Source of the DNA: an uncultured Ruminococcus sp.
GTDB lineage: Bacteria; Bacillota; Clostridia; Oscillospirales; Ruminococcaceae
Assembly: GCF_934476685.1 (NCBI RefSeq)
Contig: NZ_CAKSNX010000005.1
Location: forward strand, 23,116 to 87,115
Reading direction: 5' to 3'
Length of the DNA stretch: 64,000 nt
Shown: in pieces, positions 14,801-55,665 of the stretch
Position numbering within the stretch: the first letter of the stretch is position 1
Layout of the letters: each line of letters opens with the position of its first letter
Position numbers and translations under genes: made by a program
The notes under the pieces: model-generated
The model's input: only the letters and a program-made list of their open reading frames with translations
The model's database searches: none
What the model was told of the DNA's origin: nothing

Positions 14801-14996
14801 CTGGCGACCACAGGTCGCCCCTACGCAAACGTTGAGAAAAAAAACACATAAGACCTCATCAAAGTCGGTTTCAGTAAAAGCCATATCTCTGTTTCTTCCG
14901 AGCGCAAAGTAACAGCCCCGACCGCCGACAGCGAGCTTGCCGAGCGTCCCGAATTACCCCGACCGGTGAGGTCGCCCGTCCGGCGAGGACCGAGGG
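14801..14996 (-). repeat. Modular intergenic repeat, copy A (REP-like hairpin + M1 body)
   Basis: ggcgaccacaggtcgcccctac (14803-14824) followed by the M1 body (..catcaaagtcggtttcagtaaaagccatatctc.gtttcttccgagcgcaaagtaa..cagcgagcttg.cgagcgtcccgaattacccc..). It aligns by eye with copies B-F and ends one base before the TAG stop of the GH13 gene. Confidence 0.85.
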
Positions 14997-16301
14997 CTAA
15001 AGTTTCCAGACTTCTACTGAGTATGGTTTGAGTTCGCTGCCGCCGCCAAAATCGTGCATCGTGCCTGTCAGCAGCTCCTCCGCCCTGCCGCATCTTGCGT
15101 CAAAATGCGCAGTGTATGGCTGATCGTCCGCATTTATCGCTACCATTATCCTCTCTCCGTCACAGCAGCGCTCAATTATGCACTGCTTGTTCGTGAGAAC
15201 AGGCACCGACAAACTTCCGTAGCAAAGTGCCTTGCTGTTCTTGTGTATCTCCGCAAGCTTGGATATAAGCTCAGTCAGCTCGTTCCACTCAGGCTTCTCA
15301 AAAGATACCCTCAGCGCAGGATCTCCCTCACTCTTGCTCGCCTTTGTTCCCCACTCCGAACCGTAGTATACGCAAGGCATACCCGGCATCGCAAAAAGCA
15401 GACCGTATATCAGCGGCAAATGCTTTTCATTTGTCAGCTGGCTCGCAATTCTCGAAACATCATGGTTATCCACAAAGCAAAGCAGGTGCTTTCCCCTGTA
15501 CCTGCACCAGTCCTCAGGTCCAAACTGATTTTTCAGCGAGTGACATATCTCGAACATATTCATCGAGTTAAAGCTGGAATAAAGTCCCTTGTAACATTCG
15601 TAGTTCGTGCATGAGTGCAGCATTTCATCATTTACCCAGCGACCGTAATCACCGTGAAGAAGTTCGCCGATAAGCACAAAATCTTCCTTTACCCAGTTTG
15701 CGTGCTGCCTTAAACGCTTTAGGAAATCAAAACTCAGACAGTATGCAACGTCAAGACGCAGACCGTCAATGTCAAACTCTCTCACCCACTTCGTCACATT
15801 TTCAAGTATGTGATCCACTACCGCAGGATTGTTCAGATTGAGCTTTACAAGATCATAGTGACCTTCCCAGCCCTCGTACCATAAACCGTCATTGTAGTCG
15901 CTGTTTCCGCCGAAATTGATGTTGAACCAGTCCTTGTAAGGCGAGTTCTCCCTGTTTTTCAGTACGTCCTGAAATGCCCAGAAACCTCTGCCCACATGGT
16001 TGAATACACCGTCAATGACCACCTTTATGCCCGCCTCGTGCAAAGCCTTTACGACCTCTGCAAAATCCTCGTTCGTGCCAAGACGGCAGTCTATCTTGCC
16101 GTAATCCCTCGTGTTGTATCCGTGCGTGTCCGATTCAAATACAGGCGAGAAGTATATCGCATTCGCACCCAACTTCTGAATGTGCGGTATCCACTCCTTG
16201 ACCTTCAGTATCCTGCTCTCCTGAACACCGTCATTCTCAAAAGGCGCACCGCAGAAACCTAATGGATATATCTGATAAAAAACGCTTTCGTAAGCCCACA
16301 T
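14997..16301 (-). CDS. GH13 alpha-amylase-family glycosidase (neopullulanase / alpha-glucosidase-like)
   Basis: GH13 conserved regions DGVFNHVG, GLRLDVAY, GELLH and FVDNHD. Confidence 0.85.
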   Translation of the reverse strand: MWAYESVFYQIYPLGFCGAPFENDGVQESRILKVKEWIPHIQKLGANAIYFSPVFESDTHGYNTRDYGKIDCRLGTNEDFAEVVKALHEAGIKVVIDGVFNHVGRGFWAFQDVLKNRENSPYKDWFNINFGGNSDYNDGLWYEGWEGHYDLVKLNLNNPAVVDHILENVTKWVREFDIDGLRLDVAYCLSFDFLKRLRQHANWVKEDFVLIGELLHGDYGRWVNDEMLHSCTNYECYKGLYSSFNSMNMFEICHSLKNQFGPEDWCRYRGKHLLCFVDNHDVSRIASQLTNEKHLPLIYGLLFAMPGMPCVYYGSEWGTKASKSEGDPALRVSFEKPEWNELTELISKLAEIHKNSKALCYGSLSVPVLTNKQCIIERCCDGERIMVAINADDQPYTAHFDARCGRAEELLTGTMHDFGGGSELKPYSVEVWKL

Positions 16302-16535
16302 GATAATTTATTCATCCTTTCCAAAACAAAAAACTGCGAAGTGACATTGGTATGTTCCGCAATACCGCAAAACAGCGGTGTTTCCGCCGCCGTTTTGCAA
16401 TATTCCTTATAAAACTTTCAATACCGTCTTCTGTCCACTTCAATACTGCCTTATTATTATATCAAATTTTCTTCTTATACTCAATTCTCATTTTAAATCA
16501 ATATTTCGCAAACTTTTGTGCATCTTGCACAACTA

Positions 16536-16564
16536 TTGACAAAAGCAAACTGTTGTGATATTAT
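16536..16564 (+). promoter_or_regulatory. Sigma-70-type promoter for the asparaginase-family gene
   Basis: TTGACA (16536-16541), a 17-nt spacer, then TGaTATTAT (16556-16564). Confidence 0.45.
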
Positions 16565-16657
16565 ATTTATAACAAATAAAATATGTTCGTAAAGGTATAT
16601 CATTCCACCATTGCGGCAATATTTATAATGTATCCAACTATGCAGGGAGGCGTATCT

Positions 16658-17725
16658 ATGGAAAAAAACATAAAAAATATAGAAAACCTAGAAAAACCAA
16701 CTAACAGCAGCACACCTTCAAAAAAAATACTCGTGCTTTTCACAGGCGGCACTATCGGCAGTACCCTCAGCAGTGACGGCATAATCAGCGTCGCAGGGGA
16801 CGGACGTTTCGAGCTTATCGCCGCCTACCGCAAAGCCTTCGGCAGCGATGTCAGCTTTGAGTGCAGACAGATACTTAATATCCTCAGCGAAAATATGCTC
16901 CCTGCCTGTTGGGAAAGAATTATCGAGATATTGTCAAACGTCGATACCTCCAACTATGCAGGCATTATCCTCACCCACGGCAGCGACACCCTCGCCTATA
17001 CCTCCGCCCTGCTGGGAATGTATTTCCGCCATATAGATATCCCTCTGTATATCATAGCCGCCAATAAACCCATCGGTTCAGCAGGCAGCAACGGACTTTA
17101 CAACTTCTCCTGCGCCGTAAAAAATATCCTTGAAAATAAGTACGCAGGCGTTTTCACCCTCTATGAAAAGGTCTATATCTCCACAAGACTTCTCCCCGCT
17201 GATACCTGCCTCGACAGGTTCACAGCCTACGGCGAAGACCCCCACGCAGACTTCACCGTCCATAAAGGCATAAACGAAAAATGGCTCAAACAGCCCAAAG
17301 AAAAACTCTTCCGCAACCCCCTGAAATTCGAGAAAAATATAATGAAAATAGACGGCTACCCGTCTATGGATTTTTCAAATTACAGCCTCGACGGAAAGCC
17401 TGCCGCAGTGCTTTTTTCCCCATACCACAGCGGCACAGCCTGCACCGAAACGAAATTCGGCGATAACTATTCGTTCTGCCGCTTTATCGAAAAATGCCTT
17501 GTCAACGATATAAGAGTCTATATCTGCGGCATAAAAAAAGACCGGCCTATGTACGATACCCTCAGCAAAATTATCAAAACAGGCTGTATACCAATGTATT
17601 CCATAAGCGACGTGGCAGCCTATATGAAACTTCTCATCGCATATAATCAAAAAGAATATTACCCCTCGGAGGTTTTGAAGAAAAATCTCTACTTTGAAAT
17701 AGTGGGCGAAAAAATATCACAATAA
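16658..17725 (+). CDS. Asparaginase-family protein
   Basis: VLFTGGTIGS (the threonine motif of L-asparaginases) and HGSDTLAYTS. The ATG at 16658 follows GGGAGG. Confidence 0.7.
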   Translation: MEKNIKNIENLEKPTNSSTPSKKILVLFTGGTIGSTLSSDGIISVAGDGRFELIAAYRKAFGSDVSFECRQILNILSENMLPACWERIIEILSNVDTSNYAGIILTHGSDTLAYTSALLGMYFRHIDIPLYIIAANKPIGSAGSNGLYNFSCAVKNILENKYAGVFTLYEKVYISTRLLPADTCLDRFTAYGEDPHADFTVHKGINEKWLKQPKEKLFRNPLKFEKNIMKIDGYPSMDFSNYSLDGKPAAVLFSPYHSGTACTETKFGDNYSFCRFIEKCLVNDIRVYICGIKKDRPMYDTLSKIIKTGCIPMYSISDVAAYMKLLIAYNQKEYYPSEVLKKNLYFEIVGEKISQ

Positions 17726-17747
17726 TACAAAAAAAGGAGCAATCACA

Positions 17748-19823: not shown

Positions 19824-19841
19824 TACAGCGTACATCAACAC

Positions 19842-19880
19842 ACAAAGACCGCCTGCACACTCCATGCAGACGGTCTTTGT
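19842..19880. terminator. Bidirectional terminator hairpin between convergent genes
   Basis: Stem acaaagaccgcctgca/tgcagacggtctttgt. Confidence 0.65.
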
Positions 19881-19901
19881 TATATTCGCTTATTTTATCC
19901 T

Positions 19902-20762: not shown

Positions 20763-20836
20763 TTTTACTATCTTTTTCCTCTCTATTGCAACAAAGCTGT
20801 ATTTATAACAAAGCTGTATTTACAGCAAAGTTATGT

Positions 20837-22258: not shown

Positions 22259-22283
22259 AGCTTTTTACCTCTTCTTTTTAAGT

Positions 22284-26832: not shown

Positions 26833-27303
26833 CCCTACGGCCGCAAACATTGAGGGCAGTAGAAAGCCTTAACAAATTTTACATAAGCAAGCGACCGCAG
26901 GTCGCCCCTACGCAAACAATGAGATAAAAATTCACATTAGACCGCATCAAAGCGAAAAAAGCCGATATAAGGTCTTTACAAAGTGGTTTTCAGTAAAAGC
27001 GGGCGACCGCAGGTCGCCCCTACGGAAACATTGAGCCTTAAAAACCCAAAACAAGACCTAATCAAACCGAAAAGAACCAATACAAGACCTCATCAAATTT
27101 GGTTTTAGTAAAAGTTATATCTCAGTTTCTTCCGAGCGCAAATGAGAAGTTCGGACAGCAGACAGCGAGCTTGTCGAGTGTCCCGAATTACCCCGTCCGG
27201 GAGGACTCTTCCGAGCACGAAAGTAAAAGGCCCGACAGCAGACAGCGAGTTTACCGAGCGTCCCGAACCGAGCCGCCCGCCCGAGGGCGCCCGTCTGGGA
27301 AGA
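26833..27303 (-). repeat. Modular intergenic repeat, copy B (composite: one degenerate and two full REP-like hairpins plus a duplicated M1 body)
   Basis: Hairpins gcgaccgcaggtcgcccctac lie at 26891-26911 and 27001-27023, with a degenerate copy near 26833. The M1 tail is duplicated (27130-27205 and 27205-27300). The copy ends one base before the TAG stop of the SGNH gene. Confidence 0.85.
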
Positions 27304-28557
27304 CTAGGACGTATAGCCAAATGCTAATATTTGTCCCATGGTTTCTTCATCTCCGTCTGCCATGGAGATCTCTACCCTGTATTTCGTGTCCTCAGGCATC
27401 ATCGCAATGTTCTGCACCTGCGCATTTCCCCAACCGTTCGGACTTACCGCCTCGTATACACTGTCATCATATTCCTCTCCGTCTGCCGTCACCTTAACGT
27501 GCAGTCCACCGTATGATCCCGCCTGTACCTCCTTGTATATCATGTACAGGAACTTTGCCTCGATCTCAAATACTATCGGGTCATTTCCTGCGTCACGCTG
27601 ATGCGTCCAGCCGTTGGTGAACGTCGCTATGTCCGTTCCCTTCTCCCAGCTGCCCATCTCTATCGGCTCTATTCCGTCATTTTCCACCATGTGTGCGTCA
27701 ACTTCCCTCGGCGAGTATACGTCCTCCATCGGCATCACATATTCACCCTCAGGTTCAACGTCCATCACCGTGTCAAAGTAATAATCTACCATCGACGCAA
27801 CAAGCTTGTGTCCCTCAACGTTCGGGTGCGACTGATCGTCAGAAAAATCTTCCCACTTCATTCGTCCGTTGGCAAATAAATACCTCAGCGCATCACAGTA
27901 AGATATCATCGGTAAATTGTACCCCGTGCCTATCTCCTTCATGTAATCCTGCGCAGAGTGATCCTCCGCCGTCACAGAAAACAGCAGAACTACCGCTATG
28001 TTCTTCTCCAGCAACGTCTTTACAATAGATTCGTATGCGTTCTGATAGTCAGGCTCACTGCCGTCATTTACCGCAAATTCAATGAATACCACATCAGGAT
28101 CATATGCCAGCACATCTCTGTCAAGCCTTAAAATTCCAAGCTTTGACGGAGTTCCGCTCAGCCCCGCATTGTGATACTTTACATTGTCCCCCGTACCAAA
28201 CTTCTCCGCAAAATGCTCATACGTCAGCTTTGCGTAACAGTCATCAGGACCAGCCGAAATGCCCTCCGTTATCGAACCGCCTAAGTATGCAATGGTCACA
28301 TCTTCCCCTGCCTGCGCACGTTTTATAACGTCCTGCATCATCGAGGTGTTTCCATAGGATACCATAGCCTTGTCCAGCATAGCCTGATTCCATTCCTCAT
28401 CAGTTTCAGGGAGCTTCTCAGCCTCCGAGCTTTCCGCAGCAGAACTATCCGCCTTGCCCGAACTGCTCTCGCTCTCACTTCCCCCTGCACAGCCTGCCAT
28501 GCAGCAAATCGCCATAGCGCAGGCAGTCAGCATAGCCGCAAATCTTTTCATCTTCAT
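27304..28557 (-). CDS. SGNH/GDSL-family hydrolase lipoprotein (probable carbohydrate esterase)
   Basis: Lipobox MAGC|AGG. SGNH blocks AYLGGSITEG, GLSGT, FAVNDG and DQSHPN. Confidence 0.75.
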   Translation of the reverse strand: MKMKRFAAMLTACAMAICCMAGCAGGSESESSSGKADSSAAESSEAEKLPETDEEWNQAMLDKAMVSYGNTSMMQDVIKRAQAGEDVTIAYLGGSITEGISAGPDDCYAKLTYEHFAEKFGTGDNVKYHNAGLSGTPSKLGILRLDRDVLAYDPDVVFIEFAVNDGSEPDYQNAYESIVKTLLEKNIAVVLLFSVTAEDHSAQDYMKEIGTGYNLPMISYCDALRYLFANGRMKWEDFSDDQSHPNVEGHKLVASMVDYYFDTVMDVEPEGEYVMPMEDVYSPREVDAHMVENDGIEPIEMGSWEKGTDIATFTNGWTHQRDAGNDPIVFEIEAKFLYMIYKEVQAGSYGGLHVKVTADGEEYDDSVYEAVSPNGWGNAQVQNIAMMPEDTKYRVEISMADGDEETMGQILAFGYTS

Positions 28558-32193: not shown

Positions 32194-32490
32194 GTCTTCC
32201 CAGACGGGGTAATTCGCTACGCTCGACAAGCTCGCTGTCTGCTGTGCGGTCTGTTACTTTGCGCTCGGAAGAAACCGAGATATGGCTTTTACTGAAACCC
32301 ACTTTGATGAGGTCTTGTATCGGCTCTTTTCACTTTGATGCGGTCTAATGTGGATTTTCTCTCAACGTTTCCGTAGGGGCGACCTGCGGTCGCCCGCTTA
32401 TACCAATCCTAGCTTTCCTATACCTGCTGCAATTTTCAAATTACCTGCGGTCGCCCGCTTTCACTGAAACCCACTTTGCTAAAACCTATC
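32194..32490 (+). repeat. Modular intergenic repeat, copy C (M1 body + REP-like hairpin + half hairpin)
   Basis: gtcttcccagacggggtaattcgctacgctcgacaagctcgctgtctgc... ends in ccGTAGgggcgacctgcggtcgccc (32373-32395). A second half-site acctgcggtcgcccgc lies at 32443-32458. Confidence 0.85.
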
Positions 32491-32537
32491 GCTATCCCCA
32501 ATTACCTGCTATCACCACCCCCGCTCAAACTATCCGC

Positions 32538-37885: not shown

Positions 37886-38200
37886 CCGCCCCCATAAAAG
37901 GGACGACTAAAAAATCGTGATACCACCCTAATTACAAAGAATTCCCTAGTTCTCGAAACCTTATCGTTCTTGGAGTTTCTCAGTCCTTGGAACTTTCCAA
38001 CCCTTTAACCGAACGCCCATTAACAAAACGTCCCGAACAAAAGATCCTCTGTCACTCAAGATCCTTAACGCAGATGTACGTCCGCCCTTGAACAAGCGGA
38101 AGCTCCGAGGTGTCCTTCACCGCCATCGCCGCTGAGCCCTCTCACCGTATGGCTCTCGCTGAAAACAGCCGAAAACAGTTACTCTCCTCATCAAAGCCTG
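37886..38200 (-). promoter_or_regulatory. T-box leader with overlapping GAC (Asp) / CAC (His) in the specifier position
   Basis: The minus strand shows GAUGAGGAGAGUA, AGCGAGAG..GGUGAGAG, GUGAAG-GACAC-CUCGG (38114-38110), the T-box sequence AAUUAGGGUGGUAUCACG (37933-37916), and terminator gucguccc/ggggcggc + U6. Confidence 0.8.
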
Positions 38201-38244
38201 TTGCATTTTCACTTTGAACTTTTACTAATTTACCCCTGTGACCG

Positions 38245-38689: not shown

Positions 38690-39427
38690 TTACATCTTTA
38701 TCGAAAGCGGGATATGTTCTCCCTTGATCCTTCTGGAAATAGCGGAGAATGCAAGGAATCCCATAGAGCTTGAAGAAAGCGGCGCACCCTTTCCTGTTGC
38801 AAGCGGTATAGCCGAATCCTCAGGGATAACGCCCAGCAGCTGTACGCCTACCGTGTCGATGATAGCGTCCAGATCGTCCATCTCGTCAAACTCAAATATT
38901 CTCTTGTTAGCCTTGTTGATAACAAGACGCTGCTTCTGATTTCCTCTCTTGTAGAACTCGTCCGACATCATCTGCGCATCTCTTACACAAACAGGGTCAG
39001 GAGTAGTAACGATGAGGATAAGGTCAGAATTTGTAACTATGTCAAATACAGAGCCGTTGATACCTGCGGAGGTGTCAATGATTATGTATTCAAAATACTT
39101 TCTCATTTCCTGAGTGATCTTTTCGATATCCTCAGCCTTCAGCTGTACGAACGGATCGGAAGGTGCGCAAAGTACGCTGAGGTTAGAAGCAAGCTTTACC
39201 GTAGTGGTAGCCTTGTAAACATCACAAGTACCCTCAAGAACGTCACCCAGATCGTAAGTTATATTTCCCTGCATACCAAGCATGATATCCATACATCTCA
39301 GACCGAAGTCCAGCTCAATTATAAGGGTTCTGTTACCCTGCTTTGCAAGCGCATATCCGAGGCAGGCGCTGATAGAAGATTTGCCTGTGCCGCCCTTGCC
39401 TGAAGTAACTGCAATAATTTTTGACAT
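38690..39427 (-). CDS. MinD/ParA-family P-loop ATPase
   Basis: Deviant Walker A SGKGGTGKS and MinD-like switch regions. No minC or minE is adjacent. Confidence 0.75.
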   Translation of the reverse strand: MSKIIAVTSGKGGTGKSSISACLGYALAKQGNRTLIIELDFGLRCMDIMLGMQGNITYDLGDVLEGTCDVYKATTTVKLASNLSVLCAPSDPFVQLKAEDIEKITQEMRKYFEYIIIDTSAGINGSVFDIVTNSDLILIVTTPDPVCVRDAQMMSDEFYKRGNQKQRLVINKANKRIFEFDEMDDLDAIIDTVGVQLLGVIPEDSAIPLATGKGAPLSSSSMGFLAFSAISRRIKGEHIPLSIKM

Positions 39428-39780
39428 AAACCCATTACTCCTTTCAAATATACATTCCGTCCGTCAAGTCTGAGCCATAAGAACAGACGGAACAAACGAA
39501 ACATGATAATTCAAAAATGATAAACACCCGCTTTTATAAAAAGCCGATCATACGCTTTCGTCATATGTTTTAACTTTCGTTCATAACTTCCCCATAGAGG
39601 AAGTTCAATTATTCAAAACTCAATATGGTGTTACCTAATATATATTTTACCACAGATTTTAAAATTGTCAAAGCAATTCTTTTAAAAAAGTTTAAAATCG
39701 TTAATTCATATTAATTCACTACAAATCTTTTGTTTATAATGCACAAGATACAGTTAATAAAAATCAACAGTTTACATTAA

Positions 39781-40206
39781 AGCCGGTTCCTCCGCCCGAA
39801 AACCTTTTAACAAAAAGCCATATATTAGTTTTCCCCACCGAGGTGAATATAGCGACCCGCCCGAGGACGTGCAGGGGGCAAGCCCTTGCAGGGGAATGAG
39901 CGAGGTAGGCAAGTAAGGGGCAGCCCTCTAGCGGCGGGCTGATCGACCGCTTTGCTTTGTGCGTTTGGTAGTTTGTGATTGCTTTTTGCTTTGTTTGGTG
40001 TTTATAGTTCGTGTGCAAACTTTTAAAGCCGAGATAAGACCTAATCAAACTGAAAAGAGCCAATACAAAATCTTATCAAAGTCGGTTTAAGTAAAAGCCA
40101 TATCTCGGTTTCTTCCGAGCACAAAAGTAAAAGACCGTACAGCAGACAGCAAGTTTACCGAGCGTCCCGAATTACCCCGTCCGGGAGGACCCGCCCGAGG
40201 GCAAGA
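39781..40206 (-). repeat. Modular intergenic repeat, copy D (degenerate M1 piece + internally deleted M2 in reverse + M1 body)
   Basis: cccgcccgaggac junction motifs lie near both ends (39856-39870 and 40188-40202). The M2 ends are present (gcaagcccttgcagggg...gtaaggggcagccctct | ctttgctttgtgcgtttgg), but the central hairpin chain is missing. Confidence 0.8.
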
Positions 40207-40267
40207 CATAATTAAAAAAGTTACACATATATATGTACAAACCTTATAAGGACAAGGAGGACATATT

Positions 40268-40732
40268 ATGTTTATTAAAACTATCAAGGTCAGAAAACCG
40301 AAAATTTTTGCAGCCATTCTTGCCGCCGCAGGCATTATCTGCGCCGTGCTGCTTGTCATCGCAGCTTGCCGACTGTCATCTAAAAACGATATCCGTGAGC
40401 TGAACAGCGAAACAAAACGTCAGAATTTCCTCACCGAAATGGGCTGGGAAGTTTCCGACGAGTACGACGAGTGCAAGGTCATCACTATCCCCGAAGACTT
40501 CAACGAGGTCTACCAAAATTATAACAAACTCCAGAAGGAGCAAGGCTTTGACCTCACGAAATTCAAAGGCAAGACCGCCGAAGTCTATACATATAAAATA
40601 AAGAACTACCCCAAGCACGAAAATGAGGAAGGCATCATCTGTAACCTCATCGTCTGCGAGGATCAGCTCATCGGCGGCGACGTGTGCAGTACCGCCCTCG
40701 ACGGCTTTATGCAGGGTCTCCGCAAAGGCTGA
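40268..40732 (+). CDS. DUF4830 domain protein (N-terminal membrane anchor)
   Basis: FL...GWEV......V.IPE.F.EVY..YN.LQ...GFDL.K.KGK....YTY...NYP matches the remembered DUF4830 pattern. Confidence 0.65.
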   Translation: MFIKTIKVRKPKIFAAILAAAGIICAVLLVIAACRLSSKNDIRELNSETKRQNFLTEMGWEVSDEYDECKVITIPEDFNEVYQNYNKLQKEQGFDLTKFKGKTAEVYTYKIKNYPKHENEEGIICNLIVCEDQLIGGDVCSTALDGFMQGLRKG

Positions 40733-40882
40733 CCCCCGACCGCAATAACGTACACCAAGCAATAAATTCTATTGACTTTTTTCAAACGTTATGGTAAAAT
40801 TAAAAGCAGTAAATTGTAAGATCTGTGTATGGACTAAAGGAATATAAAAACTTATAGGAATATGTATAAAGGGGATATTATA

Positions 40883-41866
40883 ATGAAAAAACTGCTTTTT
40901 GTTTTCAATCCCTATGCGGGAAAAGGTCAGATAAGAAATAACCTTTGCGACGTTGTGGATATCTTCACAAAAGGCGGCTACGATACCGTAGTCCACCCTA
41001 CCCAAGCACCCCGTGACGGCTATAATAAAATAGTCACCGAGGGCAGTCAGTACGACCTTATCTGCTGCTGCGGCGGCGACGGCACTCTCTCCGAGGCTGT
41101 AAAGGCTATGATGACCCTCAATAAAAAAATACCTCTGGGGTATATCCCCGCCGGCTCTACAAATGACGTTGCCCAGTCCCTGAGCATACCGAAAAAGATC
41201 ACCGACTGCGCAAGCTCTATTATGAACGGCACTTTTTTCGACTATGACGTGGGCTGCTTTAACGGCGAGTATTTCGTCTACGTCGCAGGATTCGGCGCAT
41301 TCACCGACGTTTCCTACGAAACCCCTCAGAACTATAAAAACATCTTCGGCCACGCAGCCTATGTCGCCGAAGGTCTTAAACGCATAAGCAAAATAAGAGG
41401 ACAGGAAGTCACCGTCGAGCATGACGGCGAAACCATAAGCGGCAACTTTATCCTCGGACTTATCTCCAACACCGTTTCTATCGGCGGAATGAAAAAGCTT
41501 ATTGCCGACGGAGTGTGCTTTGACGACGGACTCTTTGAAGTCTGCCTTGTGAAAACGCCGAAAAATATGCTGGAGCTTAACAGCCTGCTGACAGAAGCTG
41601 CGCTGAACAAGCTCACAAACAAGAATTTCGTCACCTTCAAGACCTCTAGGCTCACTATAAAGAGTAAGGAAAGCATAGCATGGACGCTTGACGGCGAGTC
41701 TGGCGGCAGCCATACAGAAGTCGAGATAATCAATATGAAACAGGCAGTAAGACTGAGAATGCAGTTCAGCGAAATAACCGCCGAGCAGGAATCCGTCAGA
41801 CAGTCCGCTATAACGGAGGAGTACCGCCCCGTAGTAATGGAAGATCAGTCTGATATCGAAACCTGA
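40883..41866 (+). CDS. Diacylglycerol/lipid kinase family protein (YegS/DagK-like)
   Basis: LLFVFNPYAGKG and GGDGTL motifs. The ATG at 40883 follows AGGGGA. Confidence 0.8.
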   Translation: MKKLLFVFNPYAGKGQIRNNLCDVVDIFTKGGYDTVVHPTQAPRDGYNKIVTEGSQYDLICCCGGDGTLSEAVKAMMTLNKKIPLGYIPAGSTNDVAQSLSIPKKITDCASSIMNGTFFDYDVGCFNGEYFVYVAGFGAFTDVSYETPQNYKNIFGHAAYVAEGLKRISKIRGQEVTVEHDGETISGNFILGLISNTVSIGGMKKLIADGVCFDDGLFEVCLVKTPKNMLELNSLLTEAALNKLTNKNFVTFKTSRLTIKSKESIAWTLDGESGGSHTEVEIINMKQAVRLRMQFSEITAEQESVRQSAITEEYRPVVMEDQSDIET

Positions 41867-41898
41867 AAAGACCAAAAGTGAAAAATAAAAAATGACCG

Positions 41899-41940
41899 AA
41901 AAAAAGCGGAACGATGCAATAAAACATCGTTCCGTTTTTT
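41899..41940. terminator. Bidirectional terminator shared by the lipid kinase gene and rnpB
   Basis: Stem cggaacgatg/catcgttccg with A7 upstream and T6 downstream. Confidence 0.75.
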
Positions 41941-42285
41941 GTGACCAGACCTGTAAGCCGAGTTTTGTCGAGTACGGTAATCTATCTACTCCGTGCGTCG
42001 CCGCACGGCTCTAGCCACCTATGATCTGCGGTCTGACGAGCAGCCATTGACCGTTAGACCACCATTGGTGTTGCATCGGATAAGGTTTACATGGCAGCGT
42101 CATCACTGACGCTCCGGTGAGCTCTTACCTCGCCTTTCCACCCTTACCGAAATAAATCGGCGGTATATCTCTGCTGCACTAGCTCGGAGGTCGCCCTCGG
42201 CTGACGTTATCAGCTATCCTGCTCTGTGATGCTCGGACTTTCCTCATAAACATAAAACGTTCACGCTACCGTACAGTCTGCTCAC
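41941..42285 (-). ncRNA. rnpB: RNase P RNA (bacterial type A)
   Basis: The minus strand carries GAGGAAAGUCCGAGC, GGUAAGGGUGGAAAGG.GAGGUAAGAGCUCACC, AGAUAGAUUACC and ACAAAACUCGGCUUACAG. A P1 helix pairs GUGAGCAGACUG with CAGGUCUGGUCAC. Length is about 345 nt. Confidence 0.9.
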
Positions 42286-42292
42286 AAAAAAG

Positions 42293-42321
42293 ATTATACC
42301 ACACCCAAAATCATTTGTCAA
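42293..42321 (-). promoter_or_regulatory. Consensus sigma-70 promoter of rnpB
   Basis: On the minus strand: TTGACA (42321-42316), a 17-nt spacer, TATAAT (42298-42293). The predicted RNA 5' end lies about 7-8 nt downstream. Confidence 0.7.
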
Positions 42322-42905
42322 CGGTCCTCTGTCCTCGGGCGGACGGCTCGGTTCGCTACGCTCGACAAGCTCGCTGTCTGCGGTCGGGGCTTTTACATAG
42401 CGCTCGGAAGAAACCAAGATATGTCTTTTACTGAAACACACTTTGATAAGGTCTTGTATCGGCACTTTTCAATTTGATGCGGTCTATTGTGGATTTCCTC
42501 TCAATGTTTCCGTAGGGGCGACCTGCGGTCGCCCGCTTATCCCAACTTCGCTAAACCAACTTCTTATCCCAACTTTGTCACAATCTTATCTCGGCTTTTC
42601 ACGCTCGCACACAAACCACCAAACGCACAAAGCAAGTTTTAGGATCAACCCCTTTTACAAAAGGGGTTGCAGGGGCTCAAAGGGGGCAGCGCCCCTTTGT
42701 CGCTCCCGCAGGAGCGAAATCCCCCACAGCGTGAGCTCCGCATAGGGTGAATTTGAAAATAGTCCAGCGGACTGTTTTCAAAGAGGGGCATGCCCTGCGA
42801 TAGAGGGCTGCCCCTTACTTGCCTACCGCACTCATTCCCCTGCAAGGGCTTGCCCCTTGCACGTTCTCGAGCGGACGGCTCGGTTAGGAACACTCGCCAA
42901 ACTCC
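42322..42905 (+). repeat. Modular intergenic repeat, copy E (M1 body + REP-like hairpin + spacer + complete M2 + restart of M1)
   Basis: GTAG hairpin at 42512-42534. The M2 hairpin chain spans about 42600-42870. The last about 35 bp (ctcgagcggacggctcggtt..) repeat the first bases of the element. Confidence 0.85.
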
Positions 42906-42915
42906 CCCAAAACAC

Positions 42916-42946
42916 AAAAAAGCCGCATTTTCACAGCGGCTCTTTT
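42916..42946 (-). terminator. Hairpin terminator downstream of the GNAT gene
   Basis: Stem agccgc/gcggct flanked by A5 and CTTTT. The stem is short. Confidence 0.5.
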
Positions 42947-42978
42947 ATGTTTGATTTTTAATTGTTAAAACGGTATCT

Positions 42979-43404
42979 CTACTTCTGTTGCCATGTCATC
43001 ACATAATCTTTTTCACCGGTAGCATTATCCAAGCCTTCGTCCTGAATTTCAAAACCCTCTCTCTGGTAAAAAGATATCGCCCGTGTGTTTTGCTTATATA
43101 CGTTTAATCGTAATTTAGGCTTTCTATCTTTTGCATGATCCAGCAAAAACTTGCCTATGCCCTGCGACTGCTTTTCGTCAGAAACAAAGATCCCTTCAAT
43201 ATATTCGCCGCTCAAGCCTATAAAACCGTGTATCTCTTTATCATCTTCATACACATAAACTTCTGCCTGCGATAGCATTTCTTTCACTAATTCAAAATTA
43301 CTTTTCCAGTATCGAGCAGGAATAAAATAATGTGCTTTTAAATTGGTGTCTAACCATATATCAGCGACCCTGTTTATATCTGTTTTCCTTAACTCTCTTA
43401 TCAT
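42979..43404 (-). CDS. GNAT N-acetyltransferase
   Basis: IRELRKTD...GFIGL....IEGIFV....QSQGIGK.LL (GNAT motif A). The ATG at 43404 is preferred over the longer track ORF. Confidence 0.7.
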   Translation of the reverse strand: MIRELRKTDINRVADIWLDTNLKAHYFIPARYWKSNFELVKEMLSQAEVYVYEDDKEIHGFIGLSGEYIEGIFVSDEKQSQGIGKFLLDHAKDRKPKLRLNVYKQNTRAISFYQREGFEIQDEGLDNATGEKDYVMTWQQK

Positions 43405-43441
43405 AACGTTCTCTCCGCAAAATCCCTGTTTACCCCTCACA

Positions 43442-47953: not shown

Positions 47954-48467
47954 CGAAAACGTTTGACAATAAAGGGTAAACCATTACATCACATATAAAA
48001 TCTTTTCTGTATATCGAAATAATTTCAGAAAATTGTACGGAATGTTTCATTTTTCGACATTTCATATCCCAAAGTGACTTGCCGCCCATCGAAAACGTTT
48101 AATTGTATTTTCTGGCATTTTTCAGCTTTCTTATTTGTGCAGTTTAAAATATAATTCAGTTAATGAATAAAATTTTATGTATGATTTGTACATCACCATA
48201 AAGATCGCCACAGAAACTTTCACCCGTTTTCGTGTCCCCCATTCCGAAAAATTATGTCCGTCATTATATTTTTGTAATATTTGTGATAATTATATGGTCA
48301 AATTGCATAAAAGGAGTGTTGAAAATTTATTCATTGCTACATAAATTATTACATTGGGCAAAAAATTGCGAAAAAACTCTTGAATTTTTTGATAAAGTAT
48401 TGTATATTCTTATTAACGGAAACGTTTGAAATATTTGAGTCGGTATGGAAACGGCTTAAACGTTTAA
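47954..48467. promoter_or_regulatory. Cluster of four AAACGTTT-core palindromes, candidate LacI-family operators
   Basis: Cores lie at 47956-47963, 48093-48100, 48420-48427 and 48458-48465. The last is a perfect 12-bp palindrome, ttaaacgtttaa. All are upstream of the LacI gene. Confidence 0.35.
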
Positions 48468-48493
48468 CTTGAAAAGAAAGGCGGAAATATCCG

Positions 48494-49504: not shown

Positions 49505-49569
49505 GGCATTAATTAGCCGCACAGCGGTACAACAATCATAAATAATGCAAATTAAGGAGGAAAATTATT

Positions 49570-50991: not shown

Positions 50992-51135
50992 TCTGTGGCT
51001 AGTCGCATGATTACACATTGATCTGTCAACAAATATAAATCGGGGGGTGGGGAAATTCCCCTCCTCCCATTTTTATCTAAAAAGACAGGTCGGAAAGGAT
51101 TGCAATTAAACTCATACTTTGCAAAAGGTGGAAAT

Positions 51136-52083
51136 ATGAAAAAGAAAAGTATCAGCTATGCAAAATGGGGCTATATCTTCCTGCTCCCGTTTTTCATTAC
51201 ATACTGTGTTTTTTCTCTGACTCCATTGATTCAGACCTTCTATTACAGCGTCCTTGATTATAAAAAGGATACAGGTTCGATCTCAATTCTTAATCCAGAG
51301 GGAAACATAATCAACAACGGATTCTGCGGCCTTGAGAACTTCAAAGCAGTTCTCGGCGAAGGCGGCGAATTCTTCTCAACTCTCAAAAACACAACAATAA
51401 TCTGGCTCATCGGTTTCATACCGCAGATAGTTATCTCACTTATCCTCGCCGTATGGTTCACCGACCTCAGACTGAAGATCAAAGCACAGGGATTTTTCAA
51501 GACAGTTATCTATCTGCCAAACGTTATCATGGCGTCAGCAATATCACTTCTGTTCTACTCCCTCTTCACAAAGGGCGGCGCACTCTATACAGTTTTCGAT
51601 CACTTCACATCTACCGATGTTTCGCTCCTTAACAACGTCTGGGGCGCAAGAAGTATCGTAGGATTTATCAACTTTATGATGTGGTACGGAAATACCACCA
51701 TTATCCTTATGTCATCTATCATGGGTATCGACCCGTCACTCTATGAGTCATCACAGATCGACGGCGCAACAGCGTCACAGACTTTCTGGAAGATCACTAT
51801 CCCGCTTATTAAGCCACTTCTTTCATATGTGCTTATCACATCTATGATCGGTGGTATCCAGATGTACGACGTACCTCAGCTCCTCGCAGGAGATTCAGGT
51901 AACCCGTCAGGCGCAGTCAAGACCCTCGTAATGGTTATCCAGACAGGTAAGGATTCCAATATCGGTCAGACCGGTGCTATCAGCGTACTCATATTCATCA
52001 TCTCTGCAGTCCTCGGCCTGCTTGCATTCCACTTTATGAATGAGCAGCCTGGCGGCAAGAAGAAAAAGAAAAAATCTAAGTAA
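51136..52083 (+). CDS. Carbohydrate ABC transporter permease (MalF/UgpA-like)
   Basis: 6-TM pattern with EAA-like loop SSQIDGATASQTFWKITIPLIKP. The ATG at 51136 is preferred. The C-terminus is a poly-Lys tail. Confidence 0.85.
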   Translation: MKKKSISYAKWGYIFLLPFFITYCVFSLTPLIQTFYYSVLDYKKDTGSISILNPEGNIINNGFCGLENFKAVLGEGGEFFSTLKNTTIIWLIGFIPQIVISLILAVWFTDLRLKIKAQGFFKTVIYLPNVIMASAISLLFYSLFTKGGALYTVFDHFTSTDVSLLNNVWGARSIVGFINFMMWYGNTTIILMSSIMGIDPSLYESSQIDGATASQTFWKITIPLIKPLLSYVLITSMIGGIQMYDVPQLLAGDSGNPSGAVKTLVMVIQTGKDSNIGQTGAISVLIFIISAVLGLLAFHFMNEQPGGKKKKKKSK

Positions 52084-52098
52084 AGGAGGGAAAAGTAT

Positions 52099-52983
52099 AT
52101 GAGCAGAACACCTGACGTAGTAGGTCAGAAAACAAGCGGCACATCTCTTCTCATCAGAAGAATAGTTGCCTATGTAGTATTGATCTTATTAGTTTTCATT
52201 TCACTTTTCCCATTCTACCTTTTGATAATAAACGCTACAAGAGGTAAGATTCAGAACGGTATCGATTTTCTGCCAAGCGGAAATATGATGAACAACTTTA
52301 AGAAACTTTTCAGCGACGATTCCGCCGCTCGTTACGGAAATATCCTCCAGTCATTCCTGAACTCATTCATCATTTCAGGCGTAAGCTGCGTTATCTCCGT
52401 ATACTTCTCAGCTCTGACAGCATATGCTATCCACGTATATGACTTCAAGCTCAAGAAATTCGCATTCACATTCATTCTTCTCATCATGATGGTTCCAACA
52501 CAGGCATCTGCAATCGGTTTTTACAGAATGATGATCAGCTGGGGTCTTATCGATTCCTTCATTCCTCTCATCGTTCCGGCTATCGCAGCTCCTGCAGTAT
52601 TCTTCTTCATGAAGCAATATATGGATTCATCGCTCCCTCTGGAGATCGTGGAAGCCGCAAGAATAGACGGCTGCGGAGAGTTCAGAACATTCAACTCTAT
52701 CGTAACTCCTATCCTTAAGCCTGCTTTCGCAGTACAGGGTATCTTCCAGTTCGTAGCAAGCTGGAACAACTACTTCATGCCAAGAATGATCCTCCAGCAG
52801 AAGAAAACGATCCCTCTGGTTCTCCAGACAATGAAAGCCGAGATCCTCGGTAACCCACAGGTAGCACACGCCGGCGTAATGAGCCTTTATATGGTTCTTG
52901 CTATCCTCCCTGTTGTTATTGTTTACCTCTGCCTTTCAAAGTTCATTATCCGTGGTATCGCCCTCGGAAGCGTAAAGGGATAA
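52099..52983 (+). CDS. Carbohydrate ABC transporter permease (MalG/UgpE-like)
   Basis: EAA loop EAARIDGCGEFRTFNSIVTPILKP. Confidence 0.85.
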   Translation: MSRTPDVVGQKTSGTSLLIRRIVAYVVLILLVFISLFPFYLLIINATRGKIQNGIDFLPSGNMMNNFKKLFSDDSAARYGNILQSFLNSFIISGVSCVISVYFSALTAYAIHVYDFKLKKFAFTFILLIMMVPTQASAIGFYRMMISWGLIDSFIPLIVPAIAAPAVFFFMKQYMDSSLPLEIVEAARIDGCGEFRTFNSIVTPILKPAFAVQGIFQFVASWNNYFMPRMILQQKKTIPLVLQTMKAEILGNPQVAHAGVMSLYMVLAILPVVIVYLCLSKFIIRGIALGSVKG

Positions 52984-53019
52984 GATTTGTCAGTAAAATC
53001 AAAAAATATCACATATACG

Positions 53020-53057
53020 AAAAGAACCGACGCTCCTTTGTGTCGGTTCTTTTTTTG
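53020..53057. terminator. Bidirectional terminator between the ABC operon and the phage-derived cluster
   Basis: Stem agaaccgac/gtcggttct with T7 downstream and an A-rich 5' flank. Confidence 0.7.
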
Positions 53058-53064
53058 TTAATGT

Positions 53065-54012
53065 TTATCCCCTCTGTCCGTATCTGTCCGTGTAACAGCC
53101 TATCTGCGTGTATATGCCGCCCTTTGAGCCGCTTATCCTTATGCTGTTTATCCTCATCGCATTCATGTAACTCAGTCCGCTTACCTTGTCCATAAGCTCC
53201 TCGCCCCTGTATCCTGCATAAGTCACAAAACGTGTCCTTACCTGCCTTGCCGCATAACCTATCCTTGCGTCAAGTCCCTCATCAGTGGAGTAAAGCCACT
53301 GCATATCAAGTGGATCATACTTCTCTCTCACTATCCCGTATTCCCCCGCAAGTTCGTCCGACTTCTCATAGCTGTATCCGCCGTCTATGTCCGCCATGTG
53401 TACCCCCGATAAAAGGGAAGATGTCATTAGCCTTGTCCCCTGCTCTATAAGCTTCACCCCCGAAAAATCCCTCATCACACTGTCGTTCATGGTCACGCAT
53501 ACCGTGTTCGTCCTGCGTATGTACGGAAAATTCCCCGTCGCCTTCAGCGAATATGCCCTCACAGCGTCCCATATGTTCGACTTCTCCTTAACGTAAATGT
53601 ACCCCACCACAGGCGTCCCCGACTCGCATACTATCTCCGATATGTTCAGATTTTTCTTTATCAGCCCGTTCAGATCACAGTCCGAGTTTATCTTCGGATA
53701 AGGTTCGTTCTGCGCCAACAGTACAGTAAAACTCCGTGACGTAAAATCAATTATCCACCCCGACTTCTCCCTTTTGATCTCCACCGAATCCGCCAGCCCG
53801 TCAAAACTCAGCACATTGTTTACATAAAGCCTTATCCTCTTGATGTCAAATGCACTGAACGTGGGCGTTTTCGGCATATAAAATTTTCCCGTCGCATATG
53901 CAAAACAGTAGTATAACCTCTTTGATATGCTGAAACTTATGCAGTCGGAAATTTTTATAGATCCTCCGCCGCAAAGCTGTACCTCAAGATAACATCTCAT
54001 ATCTATCTCCAT
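53065..54012 (-). CDS. Phage-cluster protein of unknown role (315 aa)
   Basis: Last gene of the cluster; its start directly abuts the upstream gene's stop. No family recognised by eye. It could be a major tail or baseplate-type protein. Confidence 0.5.
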   Translation of the reverse strand: MEIDMRCYLEVQLCGGGSIKISDCISFSISKRLYYCFAYATGKFYMPKTPTFSAFDIKRIRLYVNNVLSFDGLADSVEIKREKSGWIIDFTSRSFTVLLAQNEPYPKINSDCDLNGLIKKNLNISEIVCESGTPVVGYIYVKEKSNIWDAVRAYSLKATGNFPYIRRTNTVCVTMNDSVMRDFSGVKLIEQGTRLMTSSLLSGVHMADIDGGYSYEKSDELAGEYGIVREKYDPLDMQWLYSTDEGLDARIGYAARQVRTRFVTYAGYRGEELMDKVSGLSYMNAMRINSIRISGSKGGIYTQIGCYTDRYGQRG

Positions 54013-54378
54013 TTAATCCCCTCCGAATCTGAATTCAAATTCACCAAGACGGCAGCCTGCCTTTATCTCCGCCGTCCCGGCTAGCATTACAGGCGACTTC
54101 TTTATCTCCTCACCGTCAATAATAAGCGCACCCGCCTCATCATTGAACCCCTCGATAAATTTCATAAAGTATCCCCTGTCCTCAGGTGAAAAATGCCCCC
54201 GCACAGTAACTTCACCCTCATGCGAGCCAACGTATCTTGAAAATATCCCGCTCCCCAGCGTGGCAGTTTCCGCCGTTGTCCCCTTTTTGGAATAGGATAT
54301 CTCATCAAAATATATCTTTACAGCCTCCGTCCCATTGCGTTCAAGCGTGTGCGCAGGCAAAGCATATTCCGCCCTCAT
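54013..54378 (-). CDS. Phage-cluster small protein (121 aa), connector/neck-sized
   Basis: 4-nt overlap with the upstream gene. Call rests on position after the capsid gene. Confidence 0.5.
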   Translation of the reverse strand: MRAEYALPAHTLERNGTEAVKIYFDEISYSKKGTTAETATLGSGIFSRYVGSHEGEVTVRGHFSPEDRGYFMKFIEGFNDEAGALIIDGEEIKKSPVMLAGTAEIKAGCRLGEFEFRFGGD

Positions 54379-54782
54379 TCATCTTCCTCCAAACATATCC
54401 TTGCGTTCAGCGTAAGCTCCCTGGTCAGCCTGTTCAGCGGAGATGAAAGATATATCTTCCCCAGCTTCATGCTGCGTATGAGCAAACCGCCGTCCACAAT
54501 GAATTTCCCGTACAGATCATCACATCTCGCCGTAAATTCCTCCACATCAGCGTGATCGCACGACTTCCCCATAAGCCTTATGCTCATACAGCAGTCAAGC
54601 TCCGCCGACAGCTTTTTAGAAGTACACCCCATAGCCGTCCCCACAAGCTGACAGTCCTTCAAAGCGTAAAAACCAATGTATTCGTCCTTGTGGATAAGAC
54701 TGTCCACCGCCGTAAATTCACCGAAAGCCGAAAATCCGCACTTCTCCAGTAACCCCGTTATCACATCAAAAAGTTCGTCCAT
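54375..54782 (-). CDS. Phage-cluster small protein (135 aa), connector/neck-sized
   Basis: 1-nt overlap with the upstream gene (ATG start shares its A with the upstream TAA stop). Call rests on position only. Confidence 0.5.
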   Translation of the reverse strand: MDELFDVITGLLEKCGFSAFGEFTAVDSLIHKDEYIGFYALKDCQLVGTAMGCTSKKLSAELDCCMSIRLMGKSCDHADVEEFTARCDDLYGKFIVDGGLLIRSMKLGKIYLSSPLNRLTRELTLNARICLEEDE

Positions 54783-55162
54783 TATGCCCCTCCCGTAGTT
54801 TCAAATAAAAATTCCTCGTCCTTGAATATCTCCCCAAGACCGCCTAAAGCAGATATCTTCAAACGCTGCGCCGCATCTATCCTCGAACTGAGATCTTCCG
54901 ACATACTAGCCTTGCCGTCAGCCGTGCAGATGAGCCGTTCTCTTGCCTGTAAAGCGCAAACATGATCGTAAACCGCACAGCAAGCCGCCGCATATTCACA
55001 TCGAGCAATAAGATCACCGCCGCCTGCTAAAAGCTTGTCCTCATCAATAAGAGCCGTAAGCCTGTCCGCAGCATTTTTGATAAGCGGCATCTGATCGTTC
55101 ATCTTCTCAACATCACAACCGCTCAACTGTTGAAAAATCAAAAGAATATTGTTAAAATCCAA
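54782..55162 (-). CDS. Phage-cluster small protein (126 aa), head-tail adaptor-like by position
   Basis: TTG start 7 nt after GGAGGGG. First gene after the capsid gene, but separated from it by repeat copy F. Confidence 0.5.
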   Translation of the reverse strand: MDFNNILLIFQQLSGCDVEKMNDQMPLIKNAADRLTALIDEDKLLAGGGDLIARCEYAAACCAVYDHVCALQARERLICTADGKASMSEDLSSRIDAAQRLKISALGGLGEIFKDEEFLFETTGGA

Positions 55163-55213
55163 TCTATCCCCTCCTAAGTAATAAAATCAAAATTGAAAAA
55201 ACAAAATAAAGAA

Positions 55214-55665
55214 AAAGCAATCACAAACTATCAAACGCACAAAGCAAGTTTTAGGCTAAAGCCCTTTTCCAAAAGGGCTTTCAGGGATTCAAAAGGGGCA
55301 GCGCCCCTTTGTCGCTCCCGCAGGAGCGAAATCCCCCACAGCGTGAGCTCCGCATAGGGTGAATTTGAAAATAGTCCAGCGGACTGTTTTCAAAGAGGGG
55401 CAAGCCCTGCGATAGAGGGCTGCCCCTTACTCGCCTCCCGCACAAACTCCCCCGCAAGGGCTTGTCCCTTGCGCTGTCCTCGGTCGGGTCTTCCCAGACG
55501 GGGTAATTCGCTACGCTCGGTAAGCTCGCTGTCTGCTGTGCGGTCTTTTACTTTTGTGCTCGGAAGAAACCGAGATATGTCTTTTACTAAAACCTACTTT
55601 GCTAATGTCTAATGTGGAATTTTTCTCAATGTTTCCGTAGGGGCGACCTGCGGTCGCCCGCTTAT
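55214..55665 (+). repeat. Modular intergenic repeat, copy F (complete M2 + M1 body + REP-like hairpin), located inside the phage-derived operon
   Basis: M2 spans about 55214-55480 and is near-identical to copy E. The M1 body spans 55490-55636. The GTAG hairpin is at 55637-55659. Confidence 0.85.

Follow-up and report, generated by a model that had tools for sequence, protein, structure and literature searches.

The 64,000-nucleotide stretch of DNA from an uncultured human-gut Ruminococcus analysed here (the window) carries six copies of a modular repeat family that is organized around H, a GTAG-type REP. With moderate confidence, we regard it as a BIME-like, non-autonomous and non-coding mosaic family that has been spread via H by a RayT transposase acting in trans and reshuffled by recombination. 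It belongs to the REP/BIME kind of selfish bacterial DNA and does not constitute a new kind of system. The initial annotation had likened the copies to elements of the BOX/RUP or REP/BIME type. The second comparison holds, given the GTAG REP, the link to RayT genes and the head-to-tail joining of modules, whereas a BOX/RUP mechanism does not apply because terminal inverted repeats are lacking.

Window-wide repeat finding resolved six loci as multi-copy direct and inverted families with 74–96% identity. The M1 21-mer GCTCGGAAGAAACNRAGATAT matches once per copy (at 14883, 27117 and 40100 on the minus strand and at 32263, 42402 and 55558 on the plus strand), and the H 22-mer matches six times (twice in B, once each in A, C, E and F, and not in D), with no match to either in shuffled sequences. 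Motifs T (ACTTTGATRAGGTCT) and J (GTCCTCGGGCGG) are confined to the same six loci, bar one chance match with two mismatches at 7874. Repeat finding and module matches well above shuffles thus place the six copies where they had been annotated, on the strands given there (A, B and D minus; C, E and F plus). Decayed units of copies C and F run past the annotated limits, to ~32537 and ~55790. All six H matches (6/6) lie between ORFs. The short ORFs within the copies had been taken for the repeat read in various frames, and this interpretation stands: a 90-amino-acid ORF across M2 has only four other matching ORFs, unnamed and without Pfam domains, each of which lies on a further repeat copy.

Copy A (14802..14996, minus strand) consists of M1 (~14879–14996), T (~14825–14878) and the H REP (14802–14824), and its 5′ end adjoins the TAG stop (14997–14999) of an amylase-family gene (14997–16301). 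Copy B (26833..27304, minus strand) opens with tandem M1 5′ units (27207–27304 and ~27103–27206), followed by a T block, H (27001–27023), a second T block, a second H (26890–26911) and a decayed third T/H unit (26833–26889); its first G at 27304 is the final base of the TAG stop of a GDSL-lipase gene (27304–28557). The variation in module copy number ascribed to B takes the form of a duplicated M1 5′ unit and of three H, two of which are intact and lie 112 bp from each other on one strand, the third being decayed. Copy C (32194..32537, plus strand) contains M1 (32194–32297), two T units (32298–32372), H (32373–32395) and a decayed tail, in which the 3′ half of an H (~32443–32460) precedes more decayed units.

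Copy D (39781..40207, minus strand) consists of M1 (~40086–40207), T units (~40005–40085), X (~39941–40004), an M2 remnant (39869–39939) and an internally deleted M1 restart (39781–39868), and has no H. Its M2 centre, correctly described as missing, is deleted between two direct TAGAGGGCT repeats. Copy E (42331..42904, plus strand) comprises M1 (42331–42436), T units (42437–42511), H (42512–42534), a post-H T unit with the A/C-rich X tract (42535–42645), the M2 hairpin chain (42646–42862) and, as had been noted, a renewed beginning of M1 (42863–42904). The RNase P RNA gene promoter flanks it on one side and the terminator of a gene at 42979–43440 on the other. Copy F (55214..55659, plus strand) lies within a phage-like head-gene cluster and runs through X (55214–55258), M2 (55259–55472), a J remnant (55473–55487), M1 (55488–55592), T (55593–55636) and H (55637–55659), followed by its decayed C/A-rich tail. 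A seventh copy, G, follows thiC ~6 kb outside the window and shows the layout M1-H-X-M2-M1-H with two direct H. Over the ~74 kb of non-prophage sequence that was examined, the family has a density of ~1 copy per 10 kb.

REPs are units of 20–40 bp that occur in multiple copies, are mostly extragenic and have a cognate RAYT gene that carries or is flanked by the REP. H (GTAGGGGCGACCTGYGGTCGCC) is a 22-mer in which an unpaired GTAG head precedes a hairpin with a G+C stem of 8 bp (GGGCGACC/GGTCGCCC) and a loop of 3 nt, and its DNA fold has a dG of −10 kcal/mol (z = −3.6). GTAG starts all six window H (6/6) and likewise all 163 occurrences in the loci examined plus the window. H is a genuine GTAG-tagged REP, since it shows all features listed by Di Nocera 2013 (PMC3733652), namely unpaired GTAG at the end of the palindrome, a G+C stem of 6–13 bp and a short loop. 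Pairwise identity is 97% within H, compared with 72% in its 5′ flank and 55% in its 3′ flank. Among metagenome contigs, at least 120 contain the exact 22-mer, as do 9 viral contigs; its flanks there are unrelated, and H often forms inverted doublets and often lies beside sibling hairpins. The 5′ flank CTCAAYGTTTSC is common to all six window H copies, and H is therefore not moving alone here; it marks the 3′ boundary of a basic M1-T-H element.

The non-REP modules are the 106-nt M1 unit, 31-nt T units, the X tract and M2, a chain of hairpin cassettes of ~220 nt. T-H and M1-T-H units follow one another head to tail, their number varies, and H keeps a direct orientation. M1 itself occurs in tandem, with four 106-bp units in metagenome locus L036 and two each in B and L133. 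M2 has a mosaic structure: its hairpin cassettes are interchangeable and assort independently. We also considered M2 as a remnant of a CRISPR repeat on account of GTCGCTCCCGCAGGAGCG, which resembles type I-C CRISPR repeats; the sequence occurs once per element and in no array, and this candidate was rejected.

The outer 5′ ends of the elements overlap the TAG stop of a co-oriented ORF (221–436 amino acids) in 7 of 14 instances, and these comprise all seven cases with a co-oriented upstream gene. The amylase gene of relatives ends in ...WKMER*, and the window gene ends in ...WKL* with copy A directly next, so that copy A appears to have replaced the last three codons. In the relative, the gene end is intact and the downstream gene order is also different; therefore, neither a target nor a duplication can be read at copy A. 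Left flanks vary, with TA in 7/14; none of the 14 outer 5′ ends has a repeated flank that would point to target-site duplication, although no clean empty site was recovered to compare them with. That neither a clean filled-versus-empty site pair nor a conserved target sequence was found counts against spread by RayT. The six window copies and G show no orientation bias relative to transcription (three sense, three antisense and D between diverging genes). IS200/IS605-type enzymes that insert single-stranded DNA at replication forks should leave copies biased towards one strand; the copies here, three minus and four plus on a single replichore with steady negative GC skew, speak against RayT on this point as well.

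E. coli REPs can serve as 3′-UTR stabilisers or attenuators. We consider it very unlikely that the elements are functional RNAs acting in this manner right after stop codons, or that M2 is a structured small RNA gene. Such a role would fit the seven elements that begin exactly at the stop of a co-oriented gene and must be co-transcribed there, the stable hairpins of H and M2, and two M2 positions at which a hairpin is swapped for an unrelated hairpin between unchanged flanks, together with a few pairs altered on both sides. These swaps between near-identical flanks, however, resemble recombination rather than slow compensatory evolution, half of the copies are antisense to surrounding transcription, and the two strands of M2 fold equally well (−86.7 and −87.3 kcal/mol). 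The family had further been called hairpin-rich, which is true of H and M2 but not of the 106-nt M1 unit, since the latter folds at the level of shuffled sequence (z = +0.70). M1 was thus rejected as a structured RNA, its sole candidate stem, CTCGG/CCGAG, being poorly kept, with one position that is hypervariable and often mismatched. Rfam searches of the whole window at gathering scores returned only RNase P and a T-box and none of the repeats, and at E ≤ 10 on positions 39400–43000 there was no match on D or E; the repeats thus have no counterpart in Rfam. The elements carry no promoter or intrinsic terminator, and the perfect promoter beside E, considered as the element's own, is located outside it and is that of the RNase P RNA gene.

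The copies are small, locally dense and intergenic, as would be expected of a classical MITE or IS deletion derivative moved by a DDE transposase via terminal inverted repeats in the manner of RUP/Correia elements. This origin is extremely unlikely: the ends align at random level (first 45 nt against the reverse complement of the last 45 nt, scores 5–10; random window mean 6.1, maximum 12), the 14 outer 5′ ends show no visible target-site duplication, a BLASTN search with copy E found no match among plasmid and phage records, and similarity to RayT coding sequence stops at H.

A transposase that accounts for the spread had been reported as missing from the window. This is confirmed, as no Y1/RAYT gene was found there and the only recombinase is a prophage-type serine recombinase (2879–4348). 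All-against-all ORF clustering revealed RayT-like genes with H inside the ORF at five H-bearing loci; a phmmer search of all ORFs of the H-bearing loci with an approximate IS200 TnpA query gave no match. Source databases name this H-carrying gene family 'REP element-mobilizing transposase RayT', its H-type members include proteins from Flavonifractor plautii (e.g. WP_087358283.1) and Oscillospiraceae (the host order is Oscillospirales), and we verified the H DNA hairpins within the RayT genes of loci L139 and L145. In Oscillospirales, a subfamily of RayT-type HUH/Y1 transposase genes thus carries the H 22-mer as its hairpin. In this subfamily, the REP pair is inverted and located within the ORF, and the gene lies between uvrB and uvrA in two organisms. 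Dispersed H is absent from the 20 kb surrounding the gene in two RayT-bearing organisms, so that the presence of this RayT alone need not mean spread. Derivation of M1, T or M2 from RayT coding sequence was rejected, as blastx matches comprise the H-encoded peptide plus 1–3 residues only. A literature text search with the hairpin and its peptides yielded nothing beyond primer or eukaryotic matches of no relevance.

Beyond the window, related copies lie beside other genes in gut metagenomes (L008, L036, L079, L133 and L135, of which L008 is a viral contig). Confinement to this region, the outcome that had been set against a dispersed family, is contradicted by copy G and by these copies in unrelated gene contexts, which argue for dispersal and not local duplication. 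The family is missing from two related Ruminococcus lineages at the loci sampled: neither H, M1 nor M2 was found in 53 kb from three loci around the orthologous amylase gene of relatives with 87% and 80% amino acid identity. Searching 185,579 species-representative genomes for the M1 21-mer gave one chance match in an Actinomycetota MAG, without the M1 flanks. Within the genomes and loci searched, M1 and M2, together with T and X, appear to be lineage-specific. Copies also coincide with gene-order differences between strains, as in L152, where the left side of G is joined to the right side of E inside M2; the strain-level joins in L137 and L152 come from short-read metagenome assemblies and may be mis-joins.

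Much of this variability would also arise if the repeats were passive, that is, if the mosaic had arisen once and had spread and diversified through nothing more than slippage, gene conversion and homologous or illegitimate recombination between intergenic regions, with H captured once and hitch-hiking. This explanation is tenable but less likely. It is favoured by the extensive cassette shuffling with alternative junctions, the deletion in D between 9-nt direct repeats, the often varying unit number in tandems, the shared 5′ flank of the six window H, and the failure to find target-site duplications, terminal inverted repeats or a conserved target. H, moreover, is missing from copy D and from several copies at other loci that keep M1, X and M2; this counts against RayT and indicates that these modules can persist, and perhaps spread, without H. 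Passive exchange leaves unexplained, however, (i) the arrival at many unrelated intergenic sites, in the phage-like cluster of F and on a viral contig, (ii) the sharp 5′ boundary at stop codons and (iii) the far higher identity of H than of its flanks.

For spread by RayT in trans, which we favour, the following sequence of events can be proposed. A cognate RayT, assumed to be encoded elsewhere in the same genome, would bind H in its single-stranded form and cut it. Modules delimited by H could then be multiplied in tandem, and new intergenic sites seeded, through strand transfer and rolling-circle-like copying at H; rolling-circle-like copying at REPs is the model put forward for BIME formation (Nunvar 2010, PMC2817692). 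Homologous recombination and slippage between copies would shuffle cassettes, delete segments as in copy D and rearrange the chromosome. Elements landing on extreme gene 3′ ends would survive because the TA|G junction gives an immediate in-frame stop. The lack of a RayT gene in the window weighs against this scheme, as does the presence of direct or single REPs where REPIN and BIME models rely on inverted ones.

A bolder version, which we consider unlikely, is that the family is an undescribed RayT passenger: a long composite moved via a single 3′-terminal REP, landing on gene ends where the junction creates a stop, and driven by the housekeeping-like RayT between uvrB and uvrA, whose ORF would hold the master REP as a co-evolving inverted pair, one member on either side of the HUH catalytic motif. 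If true, the transposase gene would contain the template of the sequence that is spread and might itself be a substrate for the enzyme it encodes.

To our knowledge, nearly all REP/RAYT systems described so far are proteobacterial. The REP-based family reported here has expanded in a gut commensal of the class Clostridia and is missing from the next related species in the loci compared. Because the copies rewrite gene 3′ ends, invade phage-like regions and coincide with gene-order differences among strains of different human populations, they can serve as practical markers for telling strains apart. They probably also account for contig breaks and mis-joins when genomes of the species are assembled. 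The tie between the hairpin and a very large RayT family with a REP pair in its own coding sequence suggests a testable origin of REPs.

Among known systems, BOX elements of Streptococcus pneumoniae (boxA-boxB(n)-boxC) are similar in being modular and non-coding, with variable internal unit number and module loss; this comparison is architectural only. BOX differs in lacking a REP or GTAG hairpin and any known connection to RayT, and its host is of another genus. PATEs of the IS200/IS605 type are likewise non-coding, presumed to be moved by HUH/Y1 enzymes via a DNA hairpin, and devoid of terminal inverted repeats or target duplication. They carry subterminal hairpins at both ends, a fixed left target of 4–5 nt and a strand bias, whereas the elements described here have one hairpin at the 3′ end only, varying left flanks, an unstructured 5′ part of M1 and no strand bias. 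REPINs share the proposed non-autonomous, RayT-dependent and lineage-specific character; their two inverted REPs forming a long hairpin are absent from the window copies, but inverted H doublets exist in other metagenomes and inside RayT genes. GTAG REP/RAYT systems (Nunvar 2010, PMC2817692; Di Nocera 2013, PMC3733652; Bertels 2017, PMC5581495) have the same unpaired GTAG, 6–13 bp G+C stem and 2–3 nt loop, and the same multi-copy, extragenic occurrence of an identical hairpin tied to RayT-family genes. The present family differs in its host, a Clostridia-class gut bacterium (the REP surveys consulted include no Firmicutes families), in the position of H, which here is never found alone or as an inverted doublet but always forms the 3′ tip of a longer, conserved element, and in the cognate RayT subfamily, whose REP pair lies in the ORF instead of flanking the gene. 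It is not a textbook BIME because its REPs are direct and not alternating: BIMEs of E. coli and Stenotrophomonas have regularly spaced alternating REPs and linker motifs far shorter than the 106-nt M1 or the ~220-nt M2, whereas here one or two direct REPs occur per element (two in B and G, one or none in the others). With BIMEs, whose modules are joined head to tail (Nunvar 2010, PMC2817692), the family nevertheless shares REPs with conserved inter-REP motifs, head-to-tail modules in variable number, length polymorphism between strains and an intergenic location.

Repeat finding across the whole window grouped six loci (copies A–F) as direct and inverted families with 74–96% identity, which bears out the modular intergenic repeat family proposed in the initial annotation. 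We found one match of the M1 21-mer GCTCGGAAGAAACNRAGATAT in each of copies A–F and six window matches of the 22-mer GTAGGGGCGACCTGYGGTCGCC of H, the GTAG-headed hairpin (A 1, B 2, C 1, E 1, F 1 and D 0), with zero matches of either in shuffles. The T and J motifs, the latter marking junctions between modules, were restricted to these six loci within the window. The orientations assigned to the copies hold. Copy B does have surplus H and M1 units, copy D does lack H and has M2 deleted, and copy E does end by starting M1 anew; the ends proposed for copies C and F needed extension, as decayed units run past both. Proteins encoded in the window match RefSeq proteins of an 'uncultured Ruminococcus sp.' exactly. 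Human-gut assemblies (Hadza, Nepal and other cohorts) carry the same sequence on contigs of up to 640 kb. GC skew is steadily negative across the window, and its genes are mostly minus-strand.

The modules are described here with GTAG on top; M1-T-H is the basic element. The 106-nt M1 unit starts with GTCCTCGGGCGG, for which GTCYTCCCRGACGG is an alternative allele, includes CTCGGAAGAAAC and finishes with CTTTTACTKAA; two tandem units are present in copy B and in the comparison locus L133, and four in L036. The longest M1 array seen, L036:4257-4575, runs as four 106-bp units in perfect-register tandem, then a single T-H. T consists of 1–3 copies of a ~31-nt unit, ACTTTGATRAGGTCTTGTATYGGCTYTTTTC; CTCAAYGTTTSC lies between the last of them and H. 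Because inter-copy similarity stops at the final base of H (GGTCGCC/AG.., /TG.., /CGCTT..), H marks the 3′ boundary. Longer copies continue past H with a further T unit, the A/C-rich tract X, a ~220-nt M2 and M1 again, and the module order is cyclic: copy E reads M1-T-H-X-M2-M1′, copy F X-M2-M1-T-H and copy G, a seventh copy located after thiC ~6 kb right of the window, M1-T-H-X-M2-M1-T-H. T-H units also repeat alone, with an H-H spacing of 112 bp in copy B and a half-H in copy C. Directly beyond H in copy A, at 14749-14797, a 23-nt motif, CTGACATWATGCGARTTTGCAAT, occurs twice in direct orientation; it lies outside the repeat family.

The description of the family as hairpin-rich applies to M2, a chain of stable hairpins (z = −3.9 for a DNA fold of the whole of copy E), and fails for M1, where shuffles fold at least as well as the 106-nt unit (z = +0.70). 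One rival explanation is a functional RNA, either cis-acting or a small RNA. M2 folds equally well on either strand. Comparison of eight M2 copies revealed alternative cassettes at four positions, and for hp2 and hp4 both alternatives are good hairpins (z between −2.5 and −6.7). Between near-identical flanks the cassettes assort independently, a pattern that looks like recombinational cassette exchange and not slow compensatory change.

H belongs to the GTAG REPs: its anatomy is the one that defines the GTAG-tagged REP superfamily (PMC3733652). At least 120 metagenome contigs and 9 viral contigs carry the exact 22-mer. They derive from peat, termite and human gut and further sources, and their flanks are unrelated; H frequently forms inverted doublets in them and stands beside sibling hairpins that retain GTAGGGGCG...CGCCC with an altered inner stem. 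Clustering the ORFs of H-bearing loci identified, in five of them, a family resembling RayT, the REP-associated Y1 (HUH) transposase. H lies in frame inside these genes, where it is read as VGATCGRP (forward) or GRPQVAPT (reverse). Against NCBIfam REP_Tyr_transpos they score ~E = 1e-15, below the family cut-off; of the 5,623 relatives returned by a protein search, many bear the name 'REP element-mobilizing transposase RayT'. Family members with H-type peptides include proteins of Flavonifractor plautii and Oscillospiraceae, of the same order as Ruminococcus. An intragenic REP occurs at L129:8887-8908, where the H 22-mer is in frame in the coding region of an apparent iron-sulfur protein (...AAAVGATCGRLTTDE...).

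We performed a RayT profile search over 1.84 billion representative proteins; with a threshold of E ≤ 1e-10, it found relatives in 19,756 representative clusters. Among the best 150 of these, 33 contain both VGAxxxRP and, directly after the HUH motif, GRxxxAPT; in 17 of the 33 the first site, read as its reverse complement, would encode exactly the second peptide. Shuffled peptide pairings average 1.6 such cases and never exceed 6. The internal hairpins were confirmed in DNA at five loci, as an inverted REP pair inside the RayT-family ORF (L139:9946-10310, L145:10130-10330, L129:9778-10170, L090 and L070). The two sites occupy conserved positions flanking the HUH motif (~residues 39 and 95), and their stems co-vary across lineages; the literature searched yielded no description of such a pair. 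Two different organisms, with GC of 0.495 and 0.419, each have a single-copy rayT between uvrB and uvrA (L139:7942-13316 and L145:8032-13316), with no dispersed H in the surrounding 20 kb at either locus.

The amylase gene ends ...VEVWKMER* in relatives and ...VEVWKL* in the window, continuous with copy A. Seven of 14 outer 5′ ends overlap the TAG stop (TA/GTCCTC...) of a co-oriented ORF of 221–436 aa, and the overlap is found in all seven cases with a co-oriented upstream gene, thiC among them. The simplest reading would be insertion beside TA, with survival solely where an in-frame stop arises. The genes neighbouring M1 and/or M2 are quite different in L008 (a viral contig), L036, L079, L133 and L134/L135. 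In relatives (87% and 80% protein identity; Ruminococcus sp. FC2018 included), 53 kb surrounding the orthologous amylase gene at three loci lack H, M1 and M2, the M1 21-mer has no true match in 185,579 species-representative genomes, and the prophage left of the window holds no repeat copy. The window begins in the edge of this prophage (window 1-4348; L149:1-13671), which encodes RecT, SSB, a repressor, Abi_2 and a large serine recombinase (2879-4348).

Copy F occupies a 629-bp gap between two genes of a phage-like head cluster (capsid, portal, terminase small subunit; window 53065-60890, L151:1880-9669). The viral contig L008 carries M1-H copies, and in L005 H stands alone between terminase and portal genes. 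On the minus strand, a class A RNase P RNA gene (41938-42284) has a perfect sigma-70 promoter, TTGACA-17-TATAAT (42321-42293); 10 bp separate the −35 box of this promoter from copy E at its 5′ end. A T-box leader (37896-38203, minus strand) precedes a DUF218 gene and a histidyl-tRNA synthetase gene.

Joins between copies bear on another rival, spread through recombination only. In L152, from another sample's assembly, the left side of G is joined within M2 to the right side and flank of E, two copies in direct orientation 26 kb apart (L152:13061-13800 versus window 42863-43000 and L151:17181-17800). L137 combines the right flank of E with a different left side, and L134 and L135 have M2 in common and differ upstream. 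Because these are short-read assemblies, all four may contain mis-joins; set against this reading, E and G have only ~40 identical bases in common at the L152 junction. The L152 contig starts in copy F, and its far end, past the fetched DNA, is predicted from length to reach F again; an excised circle, a tandem duplication or mis-assembly would each account for this structure.

The best-supported account of the family is a BIME-like, non-autonomous element. The REP (H) would nucleate the element, a presumed RayT acting on single-stranded H would amplify it and seed copies, and recombination would then reshuffle the modules; head-to-tail module formation is described by the rolling-circle model (PMC2817692). 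Several observations stand against the BIME-like account: (i) the 64-kb window holds no RayT-like gene, and a RayT in this genome is presumed; (ii) the REPs are direct, not inverted; (iii) H is missing from some copies; (iv) the copies show no strand bias (3 minus and 4 plus on one replichore); and (v) no clean empty site was found. A further rival, a classical MITE, is rejected because terminal inverted repeats are absent.

In the REP surveys consulted, REP families from Firmicutes or Clostridia are not listed, and Group 1 RAYTs are the only ones noted in Clostridia. The composite is neither a REPIN nor a MITE nor a PATE. Although it lacks the alternating orientation by which a BIME is defined, it works like one.
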